DNA of 32,000 nucleotides from an uncultured Chloroflexia bacterium. Its GTDB lineage: Bacteria; Chloroflexota; Anaerolineae; Anaerolineales; Anaerolineaceae. Where the stretch lies: NCBI GenBank assembly GCA_963704755.1, contig OY969938.1, positions 1,710,001 to 1,742,000 on the forward strand, in the 5' to 3' direction. Below the pieces are notes generated by a model, which saw only the letters and a list, made by a program, of their open reading frames with translations, made no database searches and had not been told where the DNA came from. Positions within the stretch are counted from its first letter, which is position 1. Every line of letters begins with the position of its first letter. This document shows positions 10,177 to 28,234 of this stretch, piece after piece. The translations under genes and the position numbers were made by a program.

Positions 10177-13100
10177 GGCTCAATCCACGCTCCCCGTGTG
10201 GGGAGCGACAATCATCTCCAAATAGTCCGGCAACAATAGGGGTGTTTCAATCCACGCTCCCCGTGTGGGGAGCGACGGGCCGAGATGGTAACTATCTCAC
10301 TCGACTACCCAGTTTCAATCCACGCTCCCCGTGTGGGGAGCGACATGAGCAGGTCGGGCCTGTACTCATGCGTTACCTGTTTCAATCCACGCTCCCCGTG
10401 TGGGGAGCGACGTAGACCGGTTTCGGAAAACCTCCTGTTTCCGTGGTTTCAATCCACGCTCCCCGTGTGGGGAGCGACTCGAACGCAATGGCGCACGGGC
10501 TGGCGCTACCAGGTGTTTCAATCCACGCTCCCCGTGTGGGAAGCGACATCGACCGCACTACTAACCGCTCGTCCTTGTAGTTTCAATCCACGCTCCCCGT
10601 GTGGGGAGCGACGAGAGGTTTCCGCGAGTTCCCAACATCGGTGGCGTTTCAATCCACGCTCCCCGTGTGGGGAGCGACGCGATCATGGCATCATGGAGAT
10701 GGTTGTATTTGTTTCAATCCACGCTCCCCGTGTGGGGAGCGACCATCCGTTTCCATTTGGCTGTTTCGGTTTCGGAGGTTTCAATCCACGCTCCCCGTGT
10801 GGGGAGCGACAACAAATTCTGGAGTTTTTACAGCAGGATCACGAGTTTCAATCCACGCTCCCCGTGTGGGGAGCGACGGTAAGCAGGTATTCTCAAGGCA
10901 ATCTTATTGCCGTTTCAATCCACGCTCCCCGTGTGGGGAGCGACGACAAGGGAAGTCAACTTATCATCTTTGATCGCTTCGTTTCAATCCACGCTCCCCG
11001 TGTGGGGAGCGACCAGGTTATTTAATCCATTTGTAATTAGTTGCAATTGTTTCAATCCACGCTCCCCGTGTGGGGAGCGACTTTAATATTATTGCGTCTC
11101 TTGATACCTGTGTGAGCCTGTTTCAATCCACGCTCCCCGTGTGGGGAGCGACTTAATATTATTGCGTCTCTTGATACCTGTGTGAGCCTGTTTCAATCCA
11201 CGCTCCCCGTGTGGGGAGCGACAATCCATCGGGCGCTGATAGGGATGATCCGGGCGCAGTTTCAATCCACGCTCCCCGTGTGGGGAGCGACTCATTTGTC
11301 TACCCTCAAACTATCGTGTTCGCAGTGTTTCAATCCACGCTCCCCGTGTGGGGAGCGACGTTTGGCCATGACACCTCAAATGTAATATCCCAGTTTCAAT
11401 CCACGCTCCCCGTGTGGGGAGCGACTTCAAGGCTCGCAACGCAGGGCGTTGGGTTCTGTTTCAATCCACGCTCCCCGTGTGGGGAGCGACAAGTGCGGCC
11501 GGGGTCAACGTCTGGTTTTGATTCAGTTTCAATCCACGCTCCCCGTGTGGGGAGCGACATCCCGCGCGGTTTACGTACGCCGTCACCGATCAGGTTTCAA
11601 TCCACGCTCCCCGTGTGGGGAGCGACTTCAACCGGCAGTGATAGTGATGCGTGCCATGCCGGTTTCAATCCACGCTCCCCGTGTGGGGAGCGACTTCTGA
11701 TTTTGTGGCCTGGCGCGCGTGGTCATTGTTTCAATCCACGCTCCCCGTGTGGGGAGCGACATCTGCTAGAGAGCAAAAAACCGCGGACGGGTCGTTTCAA
11801 TCCACGCTCCCCGTGTGGGGAGCGACGGTCTTATCCGTGTACAAGGTAGCCATAATCGGGGGTTTCAATCCACGCTCCCCGTGTGGGGAGCGACCTGGTC
11901 AACGCGGCCGGCCAGACAAACCCGCCGTTAGGTTTCAATCCACGCTCCCCGTGTGGGGAGCGACGCCGGCTTCGTAGCGACGGATGAGATCGCCGAGATT
12001 CGGTTTCAATCCACGCTCCCCGTGTGGGGAGCGACTGGACTGGCGTGTGATTTGGGATGTGTTTATCCCTGTTTCAATCCACGCTCCCCGTGTGGGGAGC
12101 GACCATACCAGGTCGTCGCATCCACCAACTCGTTGAGTGTTTCAATCCACGCTCCCCGTGTGGGGAGCGACATGCCGCTCTTCTTCAGGGCGTCTACCTT
12201 TTCTTTGTTTCAATCCACGCTCCCCGTGTGGGGAGCGACTTGGTCGTCGGCCGGGAATACGTCCCGCGTCTTGTTTCAATCCACGCTCCCCGTGTGGGGA
12301 GCGACTTATACGCCAAAACGGTAATAGCACACAATATAGTTTCAATCCACGCTCCCCGTGTGGGGAGCGACCCATAGGATCGACAACATGGATACTAATT
12401 TGCACGTTTCAATCCACGCTCCCCGTGTGGGGAGCGACCATCCGCAGGAGCCGTCACCAGGAAATAGACCAGGTTTCAATCCACGCTCCCCGTGTGGGGA
12501 GCGACGGGATGTGGGAAGGGTAGGGCATGCAGGACATGTTTCAATCCACGCTCCCCGTGTGGGGAGCGACGGGATGTGGGAAGGGTAGGGCATGCAGGAC
12601 ATGTTTCAATCCACGCTCCCCGTGTGGGGAGCGACTATGACTTCGATGATTATGATACCAAAGTAATTGTGTTTCAATCCACGCTCCCCGTGTGGGGAGC
12701 GACTATGACTTCGATGATTATGATACCAAAGTAATTGTGTTTCAATCCACGCTCCCCGTGTGGGGAGCGACTTGGACCTCCACTGCCACTTTCGATTTGT
12801 TCATAGGTTTCAATCCACGCTCCCCGTGTGGGGAGCGACCTTTGATCCCGGATGTCAGCGTATGGGAAGATGAGTTTCAATCCACGCTCCCCGTGTGGGG
12901 AGCGAACTCGAGCAACACAAAGATTTTAAGGCTTTCGAGGCATTGTTTCAATCCACGCTCCCCGTGTGGGGAGCGACGGTCCTGAGTTAAACCAAACGGG
13001 AGCAATAGGTTGTTTCAATCCACGCTCCCCGTGTGGGGAGCGACTTCCAACCTGGCCATGACGCAAACGCTTACCAGCGGGTTTCAATCCACGCTCCCCG

Positions 13101-14254: not shown

Positions 14255-14423
14255 CGCAACATCTGGGGTAAAAAAAGATCAATCCCCAAGATATTGGCCT
14301 CGCTTTATCCATTTTACCTTTACTGCCTGCTTTATCGCTCTTTTCTTAGGCAATATTCGGCTTTTAAGGTTCCAATTTTGCGCGAATCCACCTGGAAAGT
14401 CATGGGCGCTTATCGTTCGCAAT
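14255..14423 (-). promoter_or_regulatory. CRISPR leader (169 bp, AT-rich) between the cas2 remnant stop and the first repeat
   Basis: Assigned from its position between the last cas-derived stop codon (14424-14426) and the leader-proximal repeat (14222-14254), and from its A/T-rich composition. No promoter was mapped. Confidence 0.55.
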
Positions 14424-14570
14424 TCAAGTAATCAAGGGACCCTCCAGGTCAGGTGTCTCTTTTGCGCCGATATGTTCGACTCGATTGCGCCAGTGGTCGT
14501 CCAGGTTATAAAACCGCAAGCTATCCTTCTCCTTGTCGATCAATTCTTCCAGGCGGGCCTGTACTTGTAT
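14424..14570 (-). pseudogene. cas2: cas2 3' remnant (last ~45 codons only)
   Basis: My hand translation of the minus strand, one frame off from cas4, gives ...IQVQARLEELIDKEKDSLRFYNLDDHWRNRVEHIGAKETPDLEGPLIT*. This matches the conserved C-terminus of type I-C Cas2 (..DSLRFY....W...VEH.GAK......L(I/L)). There is no N-terminal half and no start codon. Confidence 0.75.
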
Positions 14571-14896
14571 TCTACCGGGGCAGGAAGGTAAAGCCCCTCT
14601 CGCCCCGGCAAGTTGACCCCACAGTCTGCACGGGTGAACTCGATCACATCACATATGCCGGCCAGGCCCAGGCGATATGAGGTAACAGGCGCCGCCCGTG
14701 CGATAACCACGCCGCTGCGCAGTTCGGCGAAAATGGGATCATCCGTACGTTTGTGCAACAGGCGACCCTCGGCCGTGCGGGCATTTTCCTGCCACTGCCG
14801 CTCGACGTGGATCAGCGCCCACTGCCGGCGGCAGAACAGGAAATGCTGGATGCCCGCAAGGGGCAGCAGTTCTTCTGCAGTGTATTCGGATTTCAT
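14540..14896 (-). pseudogene. cas4: cas4, 3'-truncated (118 codons; stops just after the ExK nuclease motif)
   Basis: The N-terminus LLPLAGIQHFLFCRRQWALIHVERQWQENARTAEGRLLH..., then ICDVIEF and PVEYK, are Cas4 (RecB-like) hallmarks. The ORF ends ...PVEYKYRPAWKN*, without the QxxxY motif or the C-terminal Cys cluster. It shares an ATGA overlap with the cas7 stop. Confidence 0.8.
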
Positions 14897-20650: not shown

Positions 20651-21158
20651 CGTTTTCCAAACCCAAGTTAATTTTGTAAATCGTTTTCACACCACACAAC
20701 ATTGCCAAGGAATGAGCTTCCATCCTCAACCTTTCCCGCAAATCCTCTGGCGTGAGCGCCTTACCATCGCTCCCCCATCCGCGGATCTATGGCAGCCTCT
20801 CCAGCGGTTCGGCGATCCAGGCGCGCCAGAACAGGCTGCCGTCATCCTGGAGGATCACCCGTTCCGAGTGGTGCCAGCGGGTTTCCTCGAACCGGTGGGC
20901 TGCACATGGGCTAAATTTCAAGATCACCTCCACCGGCTCAACTTCAGTATACCAGATGCCCCAGGCGTGCTTGAGCAGTTCGGTCGGGTCGAAGTCTTCC
21001 GAGATGGTGTAGGGCTCGCGCAGCAGCTCGATCCGCACGCTGCGCTCCCACTTGAGCGTACGCCATGTGTCCGGAGGTTCACGCCGGCCAATGGCGTGCA
21101 CCGGCTGGCCCACGGCATAGGGCTCGATGTAGTACGGCGCGAAGAAGAACTCGTTCAC
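20643..21158 (-). pseudogene. WYL-domain transcriptional regulator remnant (WYL + C-terminal extension only; in-frame amber)
   Basis: The translation ...FFFAPYYIEPYAVGQPVHAIGRREPPDTWRTLKWERSVRIELL...DPTELLKHAWGIWY...VILKFSPCAAHRFEETRWHHSERV..DDGSL resembles WYL regulators. A TAG at 20787-20789 interrupts ..ERLP*IRGWGSD.., where such proteins have PWI.GWG. The frame continues to a TGA at 20643-20645 that overlaps the cas3 ATG. An in-frame stop lies just upstream of 21158 and no HTH domain is encoded. Confidence 0.65.
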
Positions 21159-21547
21159 CTGGCCGTTTTCTTTGCGGCGTCACAAATGATTATTGGCAAA
21201 CCATCCTGAAATTTCAAATGTGCTCAGGAATTATCCCCAAAGTGAGCAATGCTAAAGATATGTCCGCGTGGATGGTTACCCTTTCATTTAGAATTAAAGC
21301 AGGATTTACGAGAAGTAGAGGGAGAAGTGATTTGGCTGGGTCTTGATTTGAAATTTCCGGATGAATTTTGGAAAGAGAATTTCGATCAAAATATCCTGAT
21401 CATTACCACCGGAGCACAGTTGACAGGAAGTGAGATTGAGATATAATTTCATCCGCGAGTTGCTACCGATAGGGAAACTGATTCGATAGGAACAAATGAT
21501 AAAGGCAGCCACTGATTGGATTTTTAGCCGGTCAGTGGACCTAAAAT

Positions 21548-21756: not shown

Positions 21757-23190
21757 CAGCCGGCCCCCTACTCTACAGGGGCCAACCAGACCGCTGTGCC
21801 ATACAAATATCCAAAATCAAAACCCTGGCGCTTTTCAACGTCAACCAGGTATGCAAACTTCCTGGCTTGAGCCAATAAATTGTTGGCCAGGAATTGTTTG
21901 CCGTCCGGTGACCAAACCACCCCACCGGGATTCCCATTGAATTCGTCATGGGTATACTCAACGATCGCGGGGTCCCATACTTCTTCCCGTTTAAAATCAT
22001 AGACCAATAACCGGACATCCGCTTCCTCTTGGACGTAAAAGGAAAGATACTGTCCATCCGGAGACCAGGCAATCCCGCTGGCCCACAGGAACTTTTCTGA
22101 AATCGCCGGATCAAGTAAAGACTTTTCATTCCCTTCCCGATCGACCACGGTCAATTCCAGGGTTTTATGTTCACCGGCATCTGGGACGAAAATGGCAAAG
22201 CGGCTCCCGTCCGGCGACCATGCGGGTTCAGAACTCCACGGCCGGGCTGCCAACGAGATCAGGTTCCGCCGCCAAATTTCTGTATTCGTTTTTAGGTCCC
22301 AAAGTGAAATCGCCCAGTCCGGCTTTTCGAGATTATTTTCATAAAATATCACCATCGAAAGTGAAGGGTCGTATTTCGGGGCGACCGAAGCGCTATACCA
22401 GTTTGGAACTGGCCAAAATCTCCCATCGACCAGGTTAGGAAAAGTCGGCGTGATCAGTTGCGACTGCTGAGTAACCAGGTTATATAAAATGAGCCTGCCC
22501 AAAGGGTATGGGTTTCCAACCGGGTATAGAAAAACCTGGGTATTCGAAGGCCAGTAGGCTATGCCACTTGCTTGCAGCTTATCTAGATCCACCGACTGAT
22601 AGGAATCTCCATCGGTAAGGATCATGGAGGTTTTTACCGCTGTTTTGCTGAGCTCTTCCCGGATAAATGCAGCATGACGTTGATCCGGCGCGATCATCTG
22701 ATTGCTATTATTATCTGCGAAAATGCAACAATCTTGTATCGAAAGGAACACTTCTGGAGATGCCATTTCGTGTTGATATTTATCTACCACTGCATAGGAA
22801 CGTTTCCCCTTCTGAAGCGGATTGAACAAAATCGTGCCATCTGACAGGCTTTCGGTATCCATAGCCGGGGGATTAACCTGAGGGTATTCGGATGCCGTCA
22901 TCATTGAAGTAGGTGTTAAACTGGCAAACGGGGAAGGAGACGGCGTCGATCGCATGGGTATCGTTTCGGTTGCTGCCGGCCCTGGCGGTGTAACCGTCAG
23001 AGTCGAAATGCCAGTTGCCGTCATTTCTGGAGATGGATTGTTACAGCCGGCCAGGCAAAGAACAACCACGAGAACGCCAAATGTTTTTATTGTTTTTGAT
23101 GAGAAGCGCATTTTTTTACCATTGGCTTGCAAAATCACGATAGCTCAGGCAATCGTTCGAAATGATTCGATCGGTTATTTCTTTAATCAA
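21757..23190. repeat. segmental direct duplication, copy 1 (partner at 30567-32000)
   Basis: The offset is exactly 8810 bp at both ends, with no net indel. By eye it is near-identical except for two short divergent patches. The extent is limited by the window end. Confidence 0.9.
21768..23111 (-). CDS. exported PD40/TolB-like beta-propeller lipoprotein (paralog A1)
   Basis: Signal peptide plus lipobox MRFSSKTIKTFGVLVVVLCLAGC. PD40-type blades AWSPDGSRFAIF, AWSPDGQYLSF and VVWSPDGKQFLA. I place the start at the Met that matches the paralog; the ORF track opens at 23138. Confidence 0.8.
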   Translation of the reverse strand: MRFSSKTIKTFGVLVVVLCLAGCNNPSPEMTATGISTLTVTPPGPAATETIPMRSTPSPSPFASLTPTSMMTASEYPQVNPPAMDTESLSDGTILFNPLQKGKRSYAVVDKYQHEMASPEVFLSIQDCCIFADNNSNQMIAPDQRHAAFIREELSKTAVKTSMILTDGDSYQSVDLDKLQASGIAYWPSNTQVFLYPVGNPYPLGRLILYNLVTQQSQLITPTFPNLVDGRFWPVPNWYSASVAPKYDPSLSMVIFYENNLEKPDWAISLWDLKTNTEIWRRNLISLAARPWSSEPAWSPDGSRFAIFVPDAGEHKTLELTVVDREGNEKSLLDPAISEKFLWASGIAWSPDGQYLSFYVQEEADVRLLVYDFKREEVWDPAIVEYTHDEFNGNPGGVVWSPDGKQFLANNLLAQARKFAYLVDVEKRQGFDFGYLYGTAVWLAPVE

Positions 23191-24030
23191 ATAGCCCGGA
23201 TCAGCTTGTGTTTTCCATACAATTTCTCCAAAGGTTTCTTCTTGATCATGAATATCGACAGGATGCTCAGGATCGAATAATTCGAGAACAACATCTTTCT
23301 CTGTAGAATCGCCCAGGCAAATATTGGCCTGGGTGGTCGTTAAACTATCAATAGCAAAAACAAACCCATACTGTTGATAATCCAAAATGAAGCCCATCCA
23401 ATCCGCATAAGGGCCGTGAAGATAAATCGAATTTGGGTATCCTAGCTGTTTGACTTGTTTGTCAACATCGAGGAACGCAGGAAATTCATCGAGCCGAATG
23501 GTTATTAACTCGACAATCCCGTTTTTCCAATTTACATCAATTGAAATTGACTTTCCGGCATTATTCGAAGGACTATTTTGAAAATTTTCCGTGTCCTCGA
23601 TGAGAAATATTGTCGAGCCCCCTTCCGCGAGGTATTGGTCTTCTTGGAAGTTTAATCCTAAATTCGCAGCGAAACTTTTAATATCATAAAATGTAGATGT
23701 TCCAGGAGTTAGCCCCAGCCAACAAGGCAAAATGCAGGCATGTGTTCCGGCTAAAACATCCGTTTTGTTTTGAATTTCCTCATAGGTTAAGGTAGCAATT
23801 GCTTCCGGCGTATAGCTTGTAGGCGTGGGCTGGATGTTTTTAGGTTGAAGGGATGGGAGAGACAAGTCCCATGTAGGCGATGTCGTCTCTAACTGTGTGG
23901 GAATTGATTTAGAAGGTAGCGGAGTGTTTTGAATAGATTCCAGCGTTGCAAAACCAACCTGTCTATCCTGGTGATTACACCCCGGCAATATGAACAACAA
24001 AACTAAAAAGAGGTAACGGATATTCGCCAA
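23116..24030 (-). CDS. hypothetical lipoprotein (304 aa)
   Basis: N-terminus MANIRYLFLVLLFILPGC is lipobox-like, with a TTG start that is uncertain. No recognisable domain. It lies 4 nt upstream of the PD40 lipoprotein gene, and a second copy begins at the window edge. Confidence 0.6.
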   Translation of the reverse strand: MANIRYLFLVLLFILPGCNHQDRQVGFATLESIQNTPLPSKSIPTQLETTSPTWDLSLPSLQPKNIQPTPTSYTPEAIATLTYEEIQNKTDVLAGTHACILPCWLGLTPGTSTFYDIKSFAANLGLNFQEDQYLAEGGSTIFLIEDTENFQNSPSNNAGKSISIDVNWKNGIVELITIRLDEFPAFLDVDKQVKQLGYPNSIYLHGPYADWMGFILDYQQYGFVFAIDSLTTTQANICLGDSTEKDVVLELFDPEHPVDIHDQEETFGEIVWKTQADPGYLIKEITDRIISNDCLSYRDFASQW

Positions 24031-25053: not shown

Positions 25054-25836
25054 TTAAATCGCGGAACTCGCACCGGGGATAATGCTAGCAAGAGCACTTA
25101 TGGTATCAAGAGAAAAACTCAACCAGTTTACCTTTGAAGGGTTAAAAATTAGATGGTAGTGTTTATCCCATGCCATTGTGTCGAATTTTATAGAACCATC
25201 GCTACGCCTAATTTGATACCAATAAGTATGGGCTAATTTGTAATCCAAATCCACCAGATCGCCATCGTTATATTCATCAGCGACAATGATTCCTTGCCCA
25301 TACTTTCCATTTGGCCTAAGTGTTCCAAATTGACCGCCAGCAAATTTACCAACATAACTAGGACTAAATTTATATCTATCTATCTCTCCGTCAATACCAG
25401 CATAGAACAGATCGCCAGTCTCTGCTCGACGCATAACCTCCAGCCAACCCCATTTTCCGTTAAATCTACCTCCAAATTCAAATTGCTTTATAACATCAGA
25501 CCAAGAATTTTTACCCATGAAAAGCATAATATCTTCTTCAGAAAATTCACCGTATGGGTCAACGAAATTGATCGGATTATTCCTTGCATAATTGTACCGA
25601 TTCCAATCTCCTGGAGAAAAAGGCCCTGGCATAAAAGGGTCAGGCTGCGTGAACTCGTGAAGATAAGGAGAGTAATATCTGGCCCGCAAGTAGACTAACC
25701 CCGTTTGCGGATCATACATCTCGCCGGTGTAGGCGTAATCACTGACGGCATCGCCACTACTATATAATATCTCCCCATAGGGCGTGTAGCTTTGCGTCAG
25801 GGTGACTGCTCCGCTCGCGTCGGTCAACTGATGCAC
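25054..25836 (-). CDS. orphan RHS C-terminal cassette c: RHS core end plus ~160-aa unrecognised toxin tip
   Basis: (V)HQLTDASGAVTLTQSYTPYGEILYS..YAYTGEMYDPQTGLVYLRARYYSP...NRYNYARNNPINFVDPYGEF, followed by a domain I cannot assign. It opens with the GTG of the GSVRQL motif and has stop codons immediately upstream, so it is 5'-truncated. Confidence 0.8.
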   Translation of the reverse strand: MHQLTDASGAVTLTQSYTPYGEILYSSGDAVSDYAYTGEMYDPQTGLVYLRARYYSPYLHEFTQPDPFMPGPFSPGDWNRYNYARNNPINFVDPYGEFSEEDIMLFMGKNSWSDVIKQFEFGGRFNGKWGWLEVMRRAETGDLFYAGIDGEIDRYKFSPSYVGKFAGGQFGTLRPNGKYGQGIIVADEYNDGDLVDLDYKLAHTYWYQIRRSDGSIKFDTMAWDKHYHLIFNPSKVNWLSFSLDTISALASIIPGASSAI

Positions 25837-26078: not shown

Positions 26079-27176
26079 TTACTCTGTTAGCTTCGGTGAA
26101 AATCGATACAATCCATTTTCCGTAGCAATCAGGATAGCATCCTGGCCCTCCTCTTTCATGTCAAGAACTTCTCTGAACGGCAATTTGGTTAAACTAACCC
26201 ACTGCCCATTTTCCTCGTATGCCAGGCAAGCGTTTTTCTGATTCCTCAAACAGGCATTGATCCATAACCTCCCGCTTTGGTCCACCAGCAAGCGTAGCCT
26301 ACCCGGATCGAGGGCTAAATCCGATGAATAAAAGGGGATTCTCTCCAGGTTACCATCTCTATCGATTATTACTAACCAATCCTGATGTTCATGTACCGCA
26401 AAAACGTTTCCATATTCGTCTGAGCCGATACGGATTGCCGTGTAGGAGCCAGAAGGCCATAACATTTCTCCAGAATAGATTTCCCAACCGGTACCGTTAT
26501 AGTGACCAATTCCCACGGGCCAGCCAAACGAAGCCCAAAGTGTACCATCAGCGGTAAATAGAATTTGTTCCGCCTCTGCCATCACTTTTTTTGGATTTGG
26601 CAGCAAACTCCAGTCAGCGCCAGCGAAAATTTGAATGCCTTTATAGCAATTACAATTTGGCAACGCCACATACACCTCTCCTAGAGGAGAAATCGCCAAT
26701 CTGGGCACGGCAGTTTCACTGGTATTATTCAAATTGAAGAAATCCCATTTTCTATTGTGGTAATGCGCTAAACCTTCACGCCCAACAGCCCAAAGCGTAC
26801 CATCTGGTGAAACAGCCATATCACTTGGTGTTGAGAGACCGTAATCCTCTCCGGAAAAATGCGTCCAATTTCCCTGATAAAAGTAGCCAATTCCCTTTTG
26901 AGCAAAATACGCCCAAATTCCCTGCTCCGCACCAAGCTCAACCTGAGAAACCATATCTTCGTCATAAATCTGGTCCCATTCGGTGGGAATAAACTCTCTT
27001 TCCACGATGGGGACACCCCCTTGAGTAGAGGTGATTTGCGGCGTTACAAGGGTTGGTGTGGCATGGCCTATTGTTCCATTGGTTCCCGGTGAGGAAAAGA
27101 TGCTCTTTTCATTTTGAGTTGAGCATGAAGCTAAAGATAAAGCCATGAAGAAGAATAAAGTCATCCTTTTTTTCAT
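26079..27176 (-). CDS. exported beta-propeller lipoprotein (two-component-regulator-propeller-like blades), immunity candidate for toxin b
   Basis: MKKRMTLFFFMALSLASC lipobox. Repeated blades GIWAYFAQKGIGYFYQGNWTHF, DGTLWAVGREGLAHYHNRKWDFF, DGTLWASFGWPVGIGHYNGTGWEIY, SGRLWINA. The ATG at 27176 has a GAGGGG SD and lies 8 nt after the toxin b stop. Confidence 0.75.
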   Translation of the reverse strand: MKKRMTLFFFMALSLASCSTQNEKSIFSSPGTNGTIGHATPTLVTPQITSTQGGVPIVEREFIPTEWDQIYDEDMVSQVELGAEQGIWAYFAQKGIGYFYQGNWTHFSGEDYGLSTPSDMAVSPDGTLWAVGREGLAHYHNRKWDFFNLNNTSETAVPRLAISPLGEVYVALPNCNCYKGIQIFAGADWSLLPNPKKVMAEAEQILFTADGTLWASFGWPVGIGHYNGTGWEIYSGEMLWPSGSYTAIRIGSDEYGNVFAVHEHQDWLVIIDRDGNLERIPFYSSDLALDPGRLRLLVDQSGRLWINACLRNQKNACLAYEENGQWVSLTKLPFREVLDMKEEGQDAILIATENGLYRFSPKLTE

Positions 27177-27183
27177 TTTCCCC

Positions 27184-28234
27184 TCAATTGTCATTAACAT
27201 GGACGATACTAATTAAATTATTCCGACTTGTAGTGTTATCCAACGAACGGAAGGCTGTATATGCAATTCCGCCACTCCTTTCTACCACGAGCGGACGTTC
27301 GTTAGTAAATGAGTTGCACAATTGAAGACTTTCTATCCAGTTCAAATATTCAATTCCACCTTCCATACCAGAAGGGCCGCTTCCAGGATTAAGCTTAGGA
27401 CCATATTCTGTTGGCAATCCCCAACCAACAACTATAGCCACATGATTCCATTTATTTTCGCTTTCCCCATAAAACACTAGATCTCCCTTTTGGATTTTTG
27501 ATCGATTGGTCAGAAGAAGGTTTTCCCAATTTTGATCTACCGATGATGAATTGTACCGATGTTGATCAGTGTCCTGAGGCGGGTTGGAGTATTTTATTAC
27601 CACCTCACCAATTACTTTGGTATCAAAACCATAAAAAGCATCTGTGTTATACCAACTACTCTTTCCTGCGTAACCTAAATACTGCCAAGCCCCTTCTTTC
27701 AAAATATTAATGTCCCAATATGGGGGGATCTAAATCAATTCCACCTACTTTTTTATCGGGGTTCGGATCTACGCGTGGATCTCGCACACCGTTTTCGTAT
27801 AAGATACTTGAGGCAAACAATGTGCATTGGCTAGAATAATCAGATCCTGGATCAAGTGTAGTAAAGTCATAATTAGGGTCTAACCCTTGTTGATAATCCC
27901 ATTGCATTGCGTATGAAACGGCCCCTAAGCGATTATATACATAATGGCCACTCGGATCCGTAAAATTGATAGGGTTATCATAGGTGTAAGCATAGAAATT
28001 CCAATCCATTGGATTTCTTGGATTTGGTTTAATAGTATCGGGTTGCATAAACTGATTGAGAGGAGGGCTATAATACCTCGCCCGCAGATACACCAGCCCC
28101 GTTTGCGGATCATACATCTCGCCGGTGTAGGCGTAATCGCTCACGGCAGCGCCATCACTATATAATATCTCTCCATAAGGTGAGTAGCTTTGGGTCAGGG
28201 TAACAGCTCCGCTCGCGTCGGTCAACTGACGCAC
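27184..28234 (-). pseudogene. orphan RHS C-terminal cassette b: papain-fold amidase-like toxin tip, split by a +1 frameshift in a C6 (G6 on + strand) run
   Basis: The RHS end is (V)RQLTDASGAVTLTQSYSPYGE...LVYLRARYYSP...YAYTYDNPINFTDPSGH. The tip carries SSQCTLFASS (Cys), GDLVFY and KWNHVAIVVGWG (His). The two ORFs (27707-28234 and 27184-27702) join if the run at 27722-27727 is one base shorter. Confidence 0.8.

Follow-up and report, generated by a model that had tools for sequence, protein, structure and literature searches.

In the intact type I-C CRISPR-Cas loci of Anaerolineae and other Chloroflexota, such as L004 (JABLWW010000017.1), L022, L024 and L015 of our comparison set, the genes are arranged in the order cas3-cas5c-cas8c-cas7-cas4, the adaptation module cas4-cas1-cas2 is complete, and a leader and a CRISPR array follow. 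Here we analyze a locus with the same gene order on contig OY969938.1 (assembly GCA_963704755.1) of an uncultured Chloroflexia bacterium, contained in a stretch of 32,000 nt (positions 1,710,001 to 1,742,000) that we refer to as the window. Compared with the intact relatives, it is up to 80% identical in Cas7, 78% in the N-terminal half of Cas4 and 72% in the C-terminal half of Cas2, and it has the same repeat family (repeats ending in ATTGAAAC), the same leader length and the same leader blocks. Whereas these relatives have the full adaptation module, a segment of about 1.53 kb that would begin at cas4 codon 112 and end at cas2 codon 49 is absent from the window. The explanation we favor, with a probability of roughly 0.85, is that this is a chromosomal type I-C locus of an Anaerolineae-like member of the Chloroflexota whose adaptation module was removed by a single internal deletion of about that size.

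There is ample documentation of CRISPR-Cas loci losing their adaptation genes, and the locus in the window is a fresh case of a known event that will not surprise a specialist. In the Beijing lineage of Mycobacterium tuberculosis, the RD207 deletion took cas1 and cas2 of the type III-A locus (PMC5310062). The likeness lies in a lineage-specific chromosomal loss of cas1/cas2 after which the array and part of the effectors persist, in that case in a successful lineage (PMC5310062). On the other hand, RD207 affects a type III-A locus, is linked to IS6110, is larger, and also removed csm6 and csm5 and truncated csm4, whereas the window has a small deletion with no link to an insertion sequence, which affects only the adaptation module and has left half-genes that are readable on both sides. 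Several classes of CRISPR-Cas variants do not have adaptation modules at all, namely type IV, transposon-encoded type I-F, I-B and V-K, V-U, and many type III loci (PMC6452270), and some of these module-less systems use adaptation proteins in trans (PMC6452270; for type IV-A3, the preprint bioRxiv 10.1101/2023.06.23.546257). Like the locus in the window, they combine effectors with an array and have no cas1-cas2 pair of their own. However, these classes are established, conserved architectures in which the effector function is often altered (e.g. by the loss of Cas3), whereas the window has the standard I-C effectors, including Cas3, together with a one-off scar that is present in no relative.

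For comparison, 80 related loci were fetched from GTDB genomes with Cas7 as the query, and 80 from JGI metagenomes with the N-terminal half of Cas4 as the query. The comparison set comprises about 150 related loci, mostly from Anaerolineae/Chloroflexota; the top-ranking relatives are metagenome-assembled genomes of this group, with Cas7 identities of up to 80%. Custom profiles were built from 95 Cas4, 91 Cas1 and 103 Cas2 relatives and searched against the window translated over its full length in all six frames. All parts of the locus are on the minus strand, and coordinates therefore descend in the strand order from cas3 to the array. The features at the proposed deletion are the following.

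14896-14540, minus strand: truncated cas4 open reading frame (ORF) of 118 aa, of which residues 1-111 (14896-14564) are Cas4
14567-14424, minus strand, -1 frame relative to cas4: cas2 remnant, consisting of the last 46-47 codons and the stop codon
14567-14564, minus strand: CAAG, the proposed deletion junction, whose bases are common to the Cas4 and Cas2 alignments

An earlier note on this stretch, made from its letters alone, had stated that cas4 stops after 118 codons, and the translation agrees exactly, down to the coordinates on the minus strand. The ORF ends in LPAPVEYKYRPAWKN before its stop codon; over its final 7 codons (YRPAWKN), it runs through cas2 DNA in the wrong frame. Its match to the custom Cas4 profile extends over positions 1-111 of 219 (E 8e-61), and tblastn places the same 111 residues on the N-terminal half of the relatives' Cas4, with identities of up to 78%. 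A search of a collection of 5.8 billion proteins gave the same boundary: query coverage ends at 94%, i.e. at residue 111, and no homologue of the YRPAWKN tail was found in that collection. Against the public profiles, the remnant scores 37.7 bits with TIGR00372 (E 1.8e-9, positions 5-88 of 180; cut-off 65) and 21.0 bits with PF01930 (cut-off 22.7). Scores below the curated cut-offs, here and for Cas2 below, are to be expected because the genes are half-genes. The D and ExK nuclease motifs are still present in the stub, and its start codon overlaps the stop codon of cas7 (ATGA, gap -4). What is missing is the C-terminal CxxCxxxxxC motif whose cysteines are present in the Cas4 of all relatives. 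The lost half had been said to carry the iron-sulphur (Fe-S) cysteines, which is true for three of the four; the N-terminal one, C22 in FLFCRRQW, has been kept, so that one of the four Fe-S ligands remains. The ORF is not a complete Cas4, which would have the whole RecB-like nuclease fold, all four Fe-S cysteines (one N-terminal and three C-terminal) and a score exceeding the cut-off.

The adjacent frame (14663-14424) reads GRIQVQARLEELIDKEKDSLRFYNLDDHWRNRVEHIGAKETPDLEGPLIT before the stop codon; in another rendering, the same Cas2 frame is written QVQARLEELIDKEKDSLRFYNLDDHWRNRVEHIGAKETPDLEGPLIT, ending at 14424. The custom Cas2 profile matches this frame over positions 50-95 of 96 (E 1.7e-17), and tblastn shows that it is 70-72% identical to residues 50-95 of the Cas2 of L004 (E 5e-18). 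With PF09827 it scores 23.0 bits (E 9e-5, positions 45-73 of 74; cut-off 23.8), and with TIGR01573 14 bits (cut-off 24.5). On its upstream side, the frame ends at a stop codon, and it contains no start codon that would give an ORF of at least 40 aa. A functional Cas2, with a ferredoxin-like fold of about 96 aa, an N-terminal ITYDV strand with its conserved Asp, and a start codon, is not encoded here. The earlier note had read this frame as the conserved C-terminus of Cas2 and had proposed a search with Cas4 and Cas2 profiles, the lack of a Cas2 match being the outcome that would have contradicted this reading; both profiles match, far beyond chance, in the six-frame translation. It had also described cas1 as entirely missing, and there is indeed no trace of it in the 32-kb window: the best match of the custom Cas1 profile over all six frames has an E-value of 1.1, and tblastn gave no match at 1e-5. 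No further cas1 or cas2 was found within the 32 kb either.

The limits of the two homologies bring the junction, previously placed within 14559-14575, down to 14564-14567. On the cas4 side, homology ends with VEYK (RecB motif III, E-x-K), the last codon of which ends at 14564 (TAC AAG, Y110 K111), while the Cas4 of the relatives continues with RGK. On the cas2 side, homology begins with Q-V-Q-A-R-L-E, the first codon being at 14567 (CAA GTA CAG, Q V Q), and the relatives have K-Q-L-Q-A-x-L-E at the equivalent site. At the DNA level, the relatives have GAA TAY AAA CGC in cas4 and AAG CAA YTN CAR in cas2. These codons and the shared CAAG make it plausible that the breakpoint had 3-4 nt of microhomology. 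No ends of mobile elements and no long repeats were found at the junction. In 101 relatives, the interval between the equivalent points measures 1463-1842 bp, most values being 1521-1558 and the median about 1.53 kb, and on this basis we estimate the deletion at about 1.53 kb, in agreement with the excision of some 1.5 kb as a single block that had been proposed from typical gene lengths. The lost segment would comprise cas4 codons 112 to about 222, with the CxxCxxxxxC ligands, all of cas1, and cas2 codons 1-49, with the ITYDV strand. A programmed frameshift that would join the N-terminal part of Cas4 to the C-terminal part of Cas2 was considered and rejected, as the sequence has no slippery site and neither half is a complete domain. 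A 12-nt match between spacer 58 and the junction (14565-14554) was also set aside, being at chance level (about 5 such matches expected, about 8 seen).

The earlier note had called for a comparison with close relatives, which could have revealed an intact, conserved gene instead of a scar. The usual module of the relatives consists of a cas4 of about 222 aa, a cas1 of 343 aa and a cas2 of 96 aa, and of those among the approximately 150 loci that have enough downstream DNA, all but four (L125, L144, L007 and L073) have the full cas4-cas1-cas2 set. No cas4-cas2 fusion was found among these loci. Since no relative shares the fusion and nearly all of them carry the complete module, the comparison supports a scar rather than a conserved arrangement.

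Among the four exceptions, L073 (Lawsonibacter sp. MAG046, JAHHSC010000009.1; 10855-11417) comes closest to the window. Its cas4 matches only positions 3-51 of the Cas4 profile, repeats follow directly at 11033, and there is no cas1, cas2 or leader downstream of the stub. This looks like a second I-C locus that lost its adaptation module independently. L073 and the window share the type, the truncated cas4 and the lost module; on the other hand, in L073 the breakpoints are different, with codon 52 or so of cas4 next to the array and neither the leader nor any part of cas2 left, and the host belongs to another phylum. L073 is also located at a contig end, so that an assembly artefact is harder to exclude there. 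In L125, L144 and L007, cas1 is present, and no cas2 or repeats are detectable downstream. Judging from L073 and these three loci, losses within the adaptation module are a recurrent event in I-C loci. Other irregularities were observed in the comparison set. In L002 (8085-17344), about 7 kb of large unrelated ORFs separate cas1 from cas2, and in L001 (2542-5230) two full copies of cas4 flank cas7. Furthermore, five Cas4 homologues (P0002, P0018, P0029, P0039 and P0057), from 66-353 kb contigs of related metagenome-assembled genomes, change frame in the middle of the protein, which would fit either indel errors of long reads or additional cas4 pseudogenes of the clade.

If the remnants are a scar, they might be expected to have drifted. 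We scored deviations at near-invariant columns, i.e. columns at least 95% conserved among the relatives, whose number differs by protein.

Cas7: 103 near-invariant columns, 0 deviations (114 relatives)
Cas5: 90 near-invariant columns, 0 deviations (49 relatives)
Cas4 remnant: 51 near-invariant columns, 2 deviations (S14A and F55I)
Cas2 remnant: 13 near-invariant columns, 2 deviations (L2V and G23D)

When pooled, the remnants deviate at 4 of 64 sites, and Cas5 and Cas7 at 0 of 193 (hypergeometric one-sided P about 0.004). This suggests that the remnants drifted after the deletion while the effectors stayed under purifying selection, which would make the scar an old one.

The effector genes upstream of the scar are arranged as follows.

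20650-18380, minus strand: cas3, 756 aa, HD nuclease fused to a helicase, apparently intact
18320-17655, minus strand: cas5c, 221 aa, intact
17658-15778, minus strand: cas8c/csd1 (signature gene of type I-C), 626 aa, intact
15759-14893, minus strand: cas7/csd2, 288 aa, intact

The canonical I-C order and the intactness of the effector genes, both proposed previously, are borne out by profile matches over the full length and by the catalytic motifs. Cas3 is encoded by a single ORF of 756 aa in which the HD domain (TIGR01596, residues 25-198) and the helicase core (TIGR01587, residues 259-583) both score above their cut-offs; the motifs HD, GGGKT, DEAQ, TAT and QAAGRINR (QxxGRxxR) were all found, and the protein aligns over nearly its full length to 85 relatives. 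The presence of DEAQ instead of DExH in motif II was considered as a sign of inactivation and rejected, because DEAQ is the commonest form, present in 53 of 95 relatives. Cas5c matches TIGR01876 (E 1e-48, 166.2 bits, cut-off 85, profile positions 1-198 of 203), Cas8c matches both TIGR01863 (E 2.7e-124, 415.8 bits, cut-off 218.65, positions 1-587 of 588) and PF09709 (E 5.7e-169, positions 1-559 of 559), and Cas7/Csd2 matches TIGR02589 (E 2.5e-107, 358.5 bits, cut-off 182.25, positions 1-282 of 284). The operon is tight, with gaps of 59, -4, 18 and -4 nt across cas3, cas5c, cas8c, cas7 and cas4, the first negative value being the overlap of 4 nt between cas8c and cas5c. No member of the Cas6 family was found among the window ORFs scanned, and the contiguous operon leaves no space for a further gene; this is the situation of type I-C, in which Cas5c processes the precursor of the CRISPR RNA (crRNA). 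The locus thus has the Cas8c signature, the Cas5c and Cas7 backbone, an HD-helicase Cas3, and I-C repeats with a leader, and the only hallmark of type I-C that it does not have is an adjacent cas4-cas1-cas2 module. It is a degraded type I-C locus with the standard effector set, and not a complete system.

Near or upstream of cas3 there are ORFs of 165-373 aa at 20712-21209 (plus strand), 23116-24030, 25054-25836 and 26079-27200 (all minus strand). No Pfam match was obtained for any of the four, and the first two, the only ones searched against NCBIfam, had no match there. They are located among genes for beta-propeller (PD40/TolB-like) and amidase-domain proteins.

Downstream of the cas2 remnant, the leader and the array have been retained.

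14423-14255, minus strand: CRISPR leader, 169 bp, intact (159-241 bp in the relatives)
14254-10177, minus strand: CRISPR array, 61 repeats (33 nt) of GTCGCTCCCCACACGGGGAGCGTGGATTGAAAC and 60 spacers of 31-40 nt

Between the cas2 stop codon (14426-14424) and the first repeat (14254) lie 169 bp, the leader length given in the earlier note, and the segment has the conserved blocks of the relatives, including CCAGATGTTGCG, which adjoins the first repeat. In all Anaerolineae-type I-C relatives (L003-L024), an inverted repeat (GCGAACC, about 24 nt, GGTTCGC) directly follows the cas2 stop codon; in its counterpart in the window, at 14375-14420, the stem is weakened to GCGAACG / GATTCGC. A terminator, a protein-binding site and a leader element are candidate roles for this structure. 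A promoter and terminator scan of the leader gave nothing on the relevant strand; the scan relied on the sigma-70 consensus, which may not apply to Chloroflexota. The repeats have the features of type I-C (about 32-33 nt, a palindromic core, a 3' end ATTGAAAC and a leader), and their family is common to the intact I-C relatives; 58 of the 61 are identical, two have single substitutions and the terminal one is degenerate. The array contains 58 distinct spacers. Three adjacent pairs are duplicates: 23 equals 24, 25 equals 26, and 46 nearly equals 47, which is longer by a single A on the side next to the repeat. These pairs point to slippage mediated by the repeats rather than to acquisition. The single A by which spacers 46 and 47 differ would fit a homopolymer indel or a sequencing error.

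The targets of the spacers were searched in two ways: the whole array gave no match against 50,697 phage records, and four spacers used as exact patterns gave none in IMG/VR. As no spacer target was found, no protospacer-adjacent motif was derived. Within the window itself, spacer 23/24 (12738-12704 and 12670-12636) matches 27608-27642 at 26 of 35 bases, 17 of them contiguous. This match lies in an ORF (27184-27702, minus strand), and its mismatches occur at about every third base, as if the true target were a diverged homologue of that ORF. The ORF is located directly downstream of an RHS-core-like ORF (27707-28234, containing YDPQTGLVYLRARYYSPPLNQFMQPD), and the target of spacer 23/24 may therefore be a polymorphic-toxin cassette on a mobile element or in another strain.

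How might this arrangement have come about, and what can the locus still do? We propose that the deletion took place by illegitimate, microhomology-mediated recombination or by replication slippage. The resulting fusion is out of frame and yields the 118-aa Cas4 stub, which is probably still translated, given the coupling of its start to the cas7 stop codon, and probably non-functional, as only one of the four Fe-S ligands is left and the C-terminal half of the fold is gone. The cas2 tail is untranslated. The deletion spared the leader with its promoter, the array and the effector operon, so that crRNA and Cascade/Cas3 should still be made. Since ORFs, motifs and leader are intact, interference with the targets of its 58 distinct spacers is probably still within the reach of the locus. 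Integration of new spacers, on the other hand, would not be possible with the genes of the locus alone, and would require Cas1-Cas2 from elsewhere.

Some points weigh against the single deletion. An assembly error, or a consensus that represents a minority variant, is formally possible, and another cas1-cas2 module may lie outside the 32-kb window. The signal of relaxed constraint consists of four substitutions only and was obtained with unequal numbers of relatives per protein. Finally, neither an undeleted allele nor a second copy of the scar was found by exact-protein look-up, in the 5.8-billion-protein search, in GTDB genomes or in JGI metagenomes, and the closest relatives in all these collections have at most 78% amino-acid identity in Cas4 and at most 80% in Cas7. 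Thus, the exact breakpoint and the microhomology could only be inferred, as none of these searches yielded the undeleted allele of the organism's own species.

It is possible, though on balance we think it unlikely, that the deletion is real and that a second CRISPR-Cas locus supplies Cas1-Cas2, and perhaps Cas4, in trans, recognizing the leader and repeat in the window. The full preservation of the leader, including the motif at the leader-repeat junction, would fit such a supply, as would an array that is long and regular, with 60 spacers. The modularity of related Chloroflexota loci, such as the split cas1/cas2 of L002 and the double cas4 of L001, points in the same direction, and supply in trans is documented for systems without a module of their own, e.g. 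type IV-A3 (bioRxiv 10.1101/2023.06.23.546257; PMC6452270). However, there is no cas1 or cas2 within the 32 kb, and the three adjacent spacer duplicates fit slippage better than acquisition, which is weak evidence.

There is a small chance that the gap is an artefact, in the sense that the organism has an intact cas4-cas1-cas2 module which was skipped by the assembler or is absent only from a minority deletion variant. The relatives are nearly all metagenome-assembled genomes and the window probably is as well, none of the public collections searched contains an identical protein or locus, and the one-base difference in length between spacers 46 and 47 may stem from a homopolymer error. However, there is no repeat common to cas4 and cas2 that might have collapsed, and the overlap of about 4 nt at the junction is far below the k-mer of an assembler. 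The window sequence contains no Ns or scaffold gaps. The additional substitutions at near-invariant sites in the remnants, moreover, are what a real pseudogene would have.

Self-targeting is very unlikely as the cause. According to this explanation, a spacer against the locus's own cas1 led Cascade-Cas3 to the locus, and the deletion made by Cas3 was repaired via microhomology, removing the target. The few bases of possible microhomology are compatible with end-joining repair after damage by Cas3, and repair of this kind is described for Haloferax after self-targeting (PMC7521656). All 60 spacers were slid over the equivalent interval of the 101 relatives, and the best match to their cas1 was that of spacer 31 (25 of 35 at nucleotide 808, a position shared by several relatives), which beats all 180 shuffled controls. 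However, this match is purine-rich, would in the cas1 frame change an invariant F and also the E of the K-E-S-G motif, and has its mismatches mostly at codon positions 1 and 2 instead of at the wobble position; no other spacer stands out. We therefore rejected spacer 31 as derived from cas1 and regard it as a chance match that breaks invariant Cas1 residues. Deletions made by Cas3 are, in addition, usually much larger and one-directional, which counts against self-targeting. That the 118-aa stub is a new functional protein under selection, e.g. a regulator or a decoy, is scarcely credible: the start codon is kept and coupled to the cas7 stop, and 49 of 51 near-invariant residues of the Cas4 N-terminus are retained, but the last 7 residues are merely out-of-frame cas2 DNA, the tail has no homologue among 5.8 billion proteins, the architecture occurs in no relative, and of the four Fe-S ligands on which the Cas4 fold depends, three are gone.

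If the single deletion is accepted, it may be asked whether the loss was neutral or advantageous. We consider it improbable that the loss of the module was itself selected, for instance against autoimmune or costly spacer uptake, freezing a memory of 60 spacers that is kept by selection on the effectors. If this were true, the array would since have evolved by repeat-mediated duplication only, and the locus would be a natural case of "fixed-memory" type I-C immunity. For annotation, the locus should be described as a type I-C effector module and array with pseudogenized cas4 and cas2, and neither as a complete system nor as a novel small Cas4. One instance does not settle whether effector-plus-array loci persist as a fixed-memory defence, a question on which this locus does bear: with a single short deletion, no insertion sequence, readable half-genes and effectors that look constrained, it would provide a clean and datable example of the loss of an adaptation module.

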